Source: Patescibacteria group bacterium
GTDB lineage: Bacteria; Patescibacteriota; Patescibacteriia; 2-01-FULL-39-33
Reading direction: 5' to 3'
DNA length: 64,000 bases
Assembly: GCA_041650895.1 (NCBI GenBank)
Contig: JBAZKF010000002.1
Location: forward strand, 7,967-71,966
The translations under genes were made by a program, and so were the position numbers. Of the stretch, positions 51,659 to 52,492 are shown piece by piece; positions within the stretch are counted from its first letter, which is position 1, and each line of letters opens with the position of its first letter. Under the pieces are notes generated by a model, which saw only the letters and a program-made list of their open reading frames with translations, had not been told where the DNA came from and did not search any database.

Positions 51659-52045
51659 TCAGGAAGGTTTTCTGCCTATTGCGACGTTACATGCAAAAGC
51701 AAAACGTTCGGGATGTTCCAGGTAATCATAGAGGAATTGTATTTTATCCCTGATTTTGTCATTGTTCTCCGGGGGAGCGCTGTGGTCAATTTCTAACCAA
51801 AGCAAGGAACGGATTTCTGCGATGATTTCCGGCAGTCGGGGAGCGGAGAGGGTTTTACCTTTTTCATATTCAGGGTTGTTGCCCCATAAGAGCGCCATGA
51901 GGACAACCATTAAGTCGCCCTCTTCCCTTAAGCTGGCGCGCAGATTAAATACCATAGTTGTTAACTTTAAAAGCAATTCATTGGGAAAGGGCTTCATGGC
52001 CGCTTCGCGTTGCTCGGCCGTTAAGGAACAGTGATATTCAGCCAT
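51659..52045 (-). CDS. Hypothetical protein (128 aa), second gene of an antisense pair inserted between murC and murB
   Basis: RBS AAAGGAGAAAC upstream of the ATG (minus strand); no TM helix, no known motif; its start overlaps the upstream gene's stop by 25 nt. Confidence 0.5.
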   Translation of the reverse strand: MAEYHCSLTAEQREAAMKPFPNELLLKLTTMVFNLRASLREEGDLMVVLMALLWGNNPEYEKGKTLSAPRLPEIIAEIRSLLWLEIDHSAPPENNDKIRDKIQFLYDYLEHPERFAFACNVAIGRKPS

Positions 52046-52272
52046 TGTTTCTCCTTTTTGTTTTTTCGTGTCTTTTCTTCAATAAAGCAATCCTCGGATA
52101 TTTCCTGAAAGGACAAAATAGCTATCCGTGTGTCGCAAAAACAAACATCACTGATTTTTTCTGCTGCCTGACTGATTGGAAAGTAGTCTTTATCAAATGC
52201 CAGAAGGATATTGGCGATGCTTGGGTTAAAATGTTCGTTGAACATAGCGTAAGAAACAAACCAGTATTTCAT
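52021..52272 (-). CDS. Hypothetical protein (83 aa), first gene of the antisense pair
   Basis: Strong RBS GAAGGAGAAG 6 nt upstream of the ATG at 52272 (minus strand); acidic; no known motif. Confidence 0.5.
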   Translation of the reverse strand: MKYWFVSYAMFNEHFNPSIANILLAFDKDYFPISQAAEKISDVCFCDTRIAILSFQEISEDCFIEEKTRKNKKEKQWLNITVP

Positions 52273-52334
52273 GATTCTTCTCCTTCTCGGTTGGTTAATC
52301 CAAAGATTGCCAAATTATTGTTAAAAGAACTCTA

Positions 52335-52369
52335 TTGATTTATGATATTATCATAATAAATAATCAATG
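52335..52369. promoter_or_regulatory. Imperfect ~35-bp palindrome in the divergent region between the antisense pair and murB
   Basis: ATTGATTTATGATA-T-TATCATAATAAATAATCAAT with a perfect inner core TGATA-T-TATCA; operator-like. Confidence 0.35.
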
Positions 52370-52492
52370 TCAATATGCCAGTAGATTTATATAAAATCCA
52401 ACAAAAAGCCGAACAGCCGCGCAAGCGGAAAAAAGTCAAGAAAGTACCGGGGTTTGCCGCACAGCAACAAGCCTTAGAATTAAGCAAATATT

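Follow-up and report, generated by a model that had tools for sequence, protein, structure and literature searches.

An orphan two-gene cassette lies antisense between murC and murB in a lineage of Patescibacteria

Two overlapping genes in the murC-murB interval

The DNA analysed here, a stretch of 64,000 nucleotides referred to as the window, contains two small genes between murC and murB that are antisense to both (Table 1). The upstream gene, N, and the downstream gene, C, encode mildly acidic proteins, overlap by 25 nt and are each preceded by an AAGGAG Shine-Dalgarno sequence. The first-pass annotation had described opposite-strand ORFs of 83 and 128 aa with this overlap, two acidic products and strong ribosome-binding sites, and the present analysis confirmed their positions and all of these properties. 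The flanking genes were identified as murC and murB from the Pfam domains that their syntenic counterparts carry in relatives (Mur_ligase/_M/_C and FAD_binding_4/MurB_C, respectively).

Table 1. Features of the cassette and its surroundings, numbered from the first nucleotide of the window
Feature	Position	Strand	Description
367-aa ORF	48093-49196	+	between ftsW and murG; overlaps murG start by 11 nt
murC	50256-51617	+	flanking gene
Intrinsic terminator	51609..51641 (hairpin 51619-51641)	-	9-bp stem, 5-nt loop, T-run; terminator scan
C gene	51659..52045	-	128 aa, pI 5.40; ORF list; constant core of the family; predicted all-helical
N/C overlap	52021-52045	-	25 nt
N gene	52021..52272	-	83 aa, pI 5.28; ORF list; homologues fused in L001, separate in L002 and L012
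Shine-Dalgarno of C	52051-52056	-	AAGGAG, 5 nt from C ATG; within N coding sequence
A_AAA_AAC heptamer	52060..52066	-	in N frame; within the stretch in which slipping by -1 would join N to C (possibility only)
Shine-Dalgarno of N	52280-52285	-	AAGGAG, 7 nt from N ATG
Candidate divergent promoter of small ORF-murB operon	52318..52346 (-10 TATGAT, 52341-52346)	+	TTGTTA-17-TATGAT, 9/12 consensus matches
Palindrome, perfect 8-1-8	52340..52356	.	TTATGATA-T-TATCATAA; core of the claimed 35-bp imperfect palindrome (52336-52370)
Cassette promoter, sigma-70 type	52345..52373	-	TTGACA-17 nt-TAATAT with upstream TG (extended -10), 10/12 matches; best promoter-like site in region
52-aa ORF	52375-52533	+	pI 10.5; end overlaps murB start by 41 nt
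murB	52493-53461	+	flanking gene

Both N and C are genuine genes under purifying selection: the ORFs go beyond what is expected by chance, since they are conserved, syntenic and show dN/dS below 1. In pairwise Nei-Gojobori comparisons, the dN/dS of C was 0.20-0.30 among close relatives and 0.25-0.40 where dS was still measurable, and that of N was 0.27-0.68, the upper values (0.54-0.68, against the closest relatives) allowing for relaxed constraint. The identity of C among close relatives (74-77%; 74-86% for the close homologues returned by the protein search) compares with 79-82% for MurC, 72-80% for MurB and 85-87% for MurG. In distant relatives C is only 37-38% identical (37-39% for the distant homologues from the exhaustive search), as against 53-64% for the neighbour proteins (MurC 62% in locus L008, MurB 53-54% in L007 and L008), and it therefore diverges faster there. 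Conservation within N is concentrated in residues 1-66, and its last nine residues (the QWLNITVP region) are the start of C read out of frame. N has a GC content of about 35-41%, against 43-48% in the comparison, and appears to be the younger part, under weaker constraint.

Two ORFs of 126 and 92 aa on the plus strand over the cassette were rejected as genes because relatives do not preserve open antisense frames (maximum 52 aa, in L007). Across loci, it is consistently the sense frames that are the long ones. An Rfam scan of positions 51000-53200 found no RNA family, a single sub-threshold snoRNA hit being a chance match.

The first-pass annotation could place neither protein in a recognisable family, and this held in HMM searches with both and structure searches with C. 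Pfam, NCBIfam, PADLOC and PHROGs gave no match for N, C, the fused form described below or the distant members, and PDB sequence profiles gave none either. An AF2 model of C was all-helical (pLDDT 73.7, pTM 0.70), and fold searches with it against PDB and BFVD found no relative, the hits being generic helical bundles only. The corresponding model of the fused N-C protein was unreliable (pLDDT 50); it suggests a beta-alpha-alpha-beta layout for N. The invariant residues of C (M1, Y4, C6, L8, E11, A16, P19, F20, W54, G55, E61, E73, A76, E77, I78, R79, W83, Y108, P112, A118 and G124) form no assignable motif.

Predicted opposing promoters and the palindrome in the control region

The cassette has promoter and terminator signals of its own, which bears out the description of it as an independent two-gene unit on the opposite strand whose upstream region is common to the murB promoter. 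Sites equivalent to the cassette promoter (TTGACA-17-TATNNT, 10-11 of 12 matches) are present in L001, L007 and L008, and the TGATA of the extended -10 is a conserved element of the control region. The motif CATATTGACA is kept in six of seven loci, and there the -35 TTGACA abuts the start codon of a small divergent ORF. At the other end of the cassette, a hairpin terminator had been placed at 51620-51640, in good agreement with our scan; its T-run lies over the final codons of murC, the convergent gene. This hairpin is identical in L001, L002 and L004, and different hairpins with a T-run occupy the equivalent position in L007 and L008. Every lineage has a cassette promoter and a terminator, the hairpin sequences differing between distant lineages.

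On the mur strand, the conserved control-region block AAATCAAT.AAGTTCTTTTAACAA contains the candidate promoter TTGTTA-17-TATGAT. In the alignment, the block TTGTTAAAAGAAC, which includes the -35 of this site, is invariant among close relatives, and L012 has TATAAT at the -10 position. From its match to the consensus, the site may be the murB-side promoter. The two opposing -10 candidates overlap by 2 bp. Since the cassette promoter physically overlaps the murB-side promoter region, both would hardly be occupied at once. We infer an overlap of the two divergent promoters and competition between them for RNA polymerase; an operator need not be invoked to explain the arrangement, and none is conserved. 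The layout resembles control regions of the tetR/tetA type, with back-to-back promoters, overlapping -10s and each -35 lying in the region transcribed from the other, so that RNA polymerase binding should be mutually exclusive. It differs from them in that no repressor or operator was found for the cassette and in that the murB-side promoter is a consensus match only.

The same region had been described as holding an imperfect palindrome of about 35 bp that served as the module's own operator. Its 17-bp core is indeed perfect, but the outer arms (ATTGAT/ATCAAT) pair only with a 6-nt bulge, making the repeat weaker than described. The core is only marginally above chance: when the spacer (102 nt, 26% GC) was subjected to dinucleotide shuffling, a perfect arm of at least 8 nt arose 3.6% of the time (P about 0.036), and about 17 other palindromes of equal quality occur in the 64-kb window. 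No inverted repeat was found at the equivalent place in L001 or L002, despite a spacer that is 88% identical overall. The core also overlaps both the extended -10 of the cassette promoter and the plus-strand -10 candidate and, since the -10 consensus is nearly self-complementary, an overlap of opposing -10s easily reads as a palindrome. The assignment as an operator is therefore not upheld, the repeat being absent from these two relatives and coinciding with two overlapping divergent -10 elements.

The small ORF that abuts the -35 box of the cassette promoter encodes a very basic protein and lacks a Shine-Dalgarno sequence; the mRNA from which it is translated may have no leader, or almost none. 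All related loci have a homologue of 39-52 aa ahead of murB (90-92% identical in close and 50-56% in distant relatives), with very low non-synonymous change. The idea of additional conservation at synonymous sites over its first 23 codons was set aside, the pattern being inconsistent: 2 of 13 sites differ from L001 and 6 of 13 from L002. Searches of Pfam and PHROG gave no match. We took its 'QPRKRKK...GF' stretch to be reminiscent of ribosomal protein L34, an identification that was set aside as lacking Pfam support.

Relatives of the cassette and the N-C junction

An exhaustive phmmer search of 1.84 billion representatives with the fused protein returned 6 clusters, and a family profile run against 5.8 billion proteins returned 8. 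The members are either labelled 'hypothetical' or unnamed, and all those for which a source organism is given come from Patescibacteria. The first-pass annotation had raised the question of whether the pair is conserved next to mur genes in related genomes. Wherever both flanks are available, the cassette lies antisense between murC and murB, even where C is only 37-38% identical and MurC 62% (L008). C occupies this slot in all of these loci, and N is present in a sub-clade only. L004, L007 and L012 are short contigs with one flank each, in an arrangement consistent with the same slot; L007 carries murB (MurB 54% identical) and, on the other side, an unannotated gene. Scans of viral contigs, phage records and plasmid records revealed no copy of the family, the 64-kb window holds no paralogue of N or C, and metagenome and genome scans returned for the family only contigs that had already been found. 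A single fixed locus without mobile copies argues for vertical inheritance and against a mobile module. A literature search on the dcw cluster, murC and murB of Patescibacteria brought up no account of the cassette.

In these comparisons C is the constant component of the cassette, and N is optional. Homologues of N were found only in the window, L001, L002 and L012, and N is absent from two deeper lineages. In one of these, L007, the promoter is followed by C (140 aa) alone; in the other, L008-L011, there are two tandem C paralogues of 140 and 137 aa, each with a terminator hairpin of its own, and, again, no N.

In L008 (positions 1248-2293) it is the whole C cassette that is duplicated in tandem, with a hairpin and T-run terminator after each copy and a dN/dS of 0.13 between the copies. 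Of the two C proteins, one departs from all others in the family in being basic (pI 8.8). In L013 (2820-3243) and L014 (1753-2043), which are two independent assemblies, a single C-family gene is frameshifted into ORFs of 47 and 96 aa. One part resembles one paralogue of the L008 tandem pair and the other part the other paralogue, which suggests recombination between duplicates followed by decay. Since C is frameshifted in these loci, it may be dispensable in some lineages.

The junction between N and C occurs in four states. In L001, from a Candidatus Buchananbacteria MAG, the two are fused into a single protein of 210 aa (P0004, found in two assemblies), of which the first ~70 residues align with N and the last 131 with C; it is 65% identical to the 83-aa N over 78 aligned residues. 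This link was visible only with the 128-aa query and an exhaustive search, a word-indexed search with the 83-aa query having missed P0004. In L002 and L003, N has 72 aa and its TAA is followed directly, in the same frame, by the ATG of C, with a strong Shine-Dalgarno sequence; C there has a linker-like extension of 21 residues. L012, the locus most like the fused L001 in its promoter and the start of C, has an N of 80 aa that ends in TGA, followed by 45 in-frame nt and then the Shine-Dalgarno sequence and ATG of C. In the window, a conserved TGC codon lies 44 nt from the start of C, as against 45 nt in L001; this junction is 1 nt shorter, and the two frames are therefore offset by -1, giving the 25-nt overlap. 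Throughout these junction states C retains its own ribosome-binding site and an M-x-E-Y-x-C start, a Shine-Dalgarno-like element and ATG being present also in L001 (AAGGA), L012 (AAGGAG), L007 and L008. The overlapping layout is one among several junction states of a linker that changes fast.

Locus L004 (positions 1-306) shows an extra coding segment of ~95 aa (…LVEAYFTLLLLMKKDDPNALRELL…) between the linker motif SKEPK and C. The segment has no Pfam match, and the contig ends there.

These observations bear on how the two products may work. N and C most likely function jointly, as the two parts of a single protein unit, given that they are fused in L001, lie one in-frame stop apart in two relatives and overlap by 25 nt here; Rosetta-stone logic, together with translational coupling, suggests that they also associate physically. 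Split and fused modules are a classical indication of proteins that work together physically, and the cassette resembles such pairs in that its modules are separate but coupled in some genomes and a single polypeptide in another. It departs from them in that the states vary between very close relatives (frameshift, in-frame stop, fusion), that N is dispensable in deeper lineages and that neither module belongs to a described family. Natural Mur ligase chimeras (MurE-MurF) are described as one example of split/fused pairs (PMC10214165).

The fused form could alternatively mean that the window holds a broken two-domain gene, the overlap being the scar of a 1-nt deletion and N a decaying remnant or the product of an assembly error, or else that full length is restored by -1 frameshifting at A_AAA_AAC. 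Besides the existence of the 210-aa protein, this would account for a junction exactly 1 nt shorter than that of L001, for the last nine residues of N being an out-of-frame reading of C and for the high dN/dS of N (up to 0.54-0.68). Nevertheless, N in the window keeps 22 of 22 invariant columns of the N alignment, and the same 83-aa product is on record from several sources. C has its own strong Shine-Dalgarno sequence and ATG in every lineage and occurs elsewhere without N. Split forms are found in three of the four close lineages, L012 included, and each is split with a different junction. As for frameshifting, the heptamer is in frame within a 12-codon stretch in which the -1 frame is open (it opens 12 codons upstream of the C ATG), and the predicted N-C junction peptide would read ...TRKKQKGETMAEY... 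(also written ...EEKTRKKQKGETMAEYH...). Against it, there is no stimulatory hairpin or pseudoknot 3' of the heptamer (fold z = -0.82), and the slippery site is not conserved in relatives, which, having a fusion or an in-frame stop, need no frameshift. We therefore regard a broken gene, with or without recoding, as unlikely.

Nature of the cassette and its place in the dcw cluster

With somewhat better than even confidence, we interpret the locus as a vertically inherited, lineage-restricted orphan cassette that encodes one two-part protein unit, an accessory factor or modulator linked to the envelope or to division. The cassette would be restricted to one small lineage of Patescibacteria (Candidatus Buchananbacteria and allies) and would have resided antisense in the murC-murB spacer since before those lineages split. 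Its constant component is C, a soluble, acidic, all-helical protein of about 128-140 aa; N, with ~65 conserved residues predicted to adopt a beta-alpha-alpha-beta layout, would be a later and optional partner confined to the sub-clade of the window. The cassette is predicted to be transcribed alone, from its near-consensus sigma-70 promoter to its own terminator, in competition with a divergent small-ORF-murB-hpf-secA unit. Since C is acidic, helical and without a DNA-binding signature, the product would work through contacts with other proteins, as a lineage-specific accessory factor or modulator linked to cell-envelope synthesis or division, and not as a toxin-antitoxin or DNA-binding pair.

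The tie to the envelope, whether to its function or to its expression, is drawn from the long residence between murC and murB and from the overlap with the murB promoter. Its basis is thus the conserved position; the cassette is not co-transcribed with the mur genes. The slot is conserved, but the cassette runs on the opposite strand to the mur and fts genes with its own promoter and terminator, and no homology to a division or cell-wall protein was found for it. In having no homologue outside a narrow clade, no known fold and a fixed chromosomal position, it resembles other taxonomically restricted orphan genes. Typical orphans differ from it in that the cassette lies inside a highly conserved cluster and, in close relatives, is under purifying selection at about the rate of its housekeeping neighbours.

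A more specific and rather improbable version of this history is gene birth in situ within the dcw cluster. C would have been born in the murC-murB spacer of an ancestral Patescibacterium, and N would have arisen later, in one sub-clade, from the 5' leader of C. The pair would now be fusing and splitting, and its product would be a CPR-specific modulator of peptidoglycan-precursor synthesis or division, acting in part through competition at the murB promoter. The states found at the locus could then be read as products of this process: the window has a frameshift, L002 and L012 have in-frame stops, L001 has the fusion and L004 the additional segment, while C is duplicated in L008 and decayed in L013.

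The overlap of the divergent promoters, an arrangement conserved in all lineages, and the palindrome across the -10 boxes might also point to a small transcription regulator, such that C, or N and C together, would bind the common promoter region and balance expression of the cassette against that of small-ORF-murB-hpf-secA. We consider this quite doubtful, as no DNA-binding signature, whether HTH, RHH or another, was detected in either protein, the fold searches returned generic helical bundles, N and C are both acidic, and the palindrome is missing from L001 and L002 even though the proteins are 74-77% identical.

The first-pass annotation had proposed the architecture of an autoregulated toxin-antitoxin, immunity or small regulatory pair. 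Least probable of all, in our estimation, is a type II toxin-antitoxin, or an immunity or addiction pair of that sort, in which one product would be toxic and the other would neutralise it and repress the operon through the palindrome. The cassette does resemble operons such as relBE, mazEF and higBA in consisting of two small, adjacent, coupled genes (25-nt overlap) on one transcript with a single dedicated promoter and a single terminator, with a palindrome over the -10 here; it belongs to no known family that would exclude such a reading, and the locus shows rapid structural turnover. Turnover of the junction by fusion, fission, duplication and the extra segment of L004 is also typical of conflict-type genes. 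In other respects the resemblance fails. Models of toxins, antitoxins and defence systems gave no match for N or C, nor did either show a domain of the RHH, HTH, AbrB or Phd type. Both products are acidic, in contrast to type II toxins, which are usually basic. The distribution is that of a single, vertically inherited locus with no plasmid or phage copies, rather than mobile, patchy or multi-copy. Pairing is not obligatory, C being found without N in L007 and duplicated without N in L008, and the pair is one ORF in L001. Finally, the palindrome is not conserved as an operator would be.

Should the orphan cassette that we favour prove to be a modulator of wall or division genes, it would represent an addition, specific to this lineage, to a gene cluster that ranks among the most conserved in bacteria, and would matter for the CPR/Patescibacteria, whose cell biology is almost unknown. 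Its relatives already provide, in a compact set, natural examples of one orphan gene in fused, split, duplicated and decayed states, a useful series for work on the origin and combination of new small proteins. At present, the family is one more set of uncharacterised hypothetical proteins in a phylum rich in them, with no sign of a new mechanism.

Elsewhere in the same cluster, a 367-aa ORF without a Pfam domain lies between ftsW and murG. It is kept in L001 and L002 (78-85% identity) and absent from L008 and L013, where murG directly follows ftsW. It is a second lineage-specific insertion in the dcw cluster.
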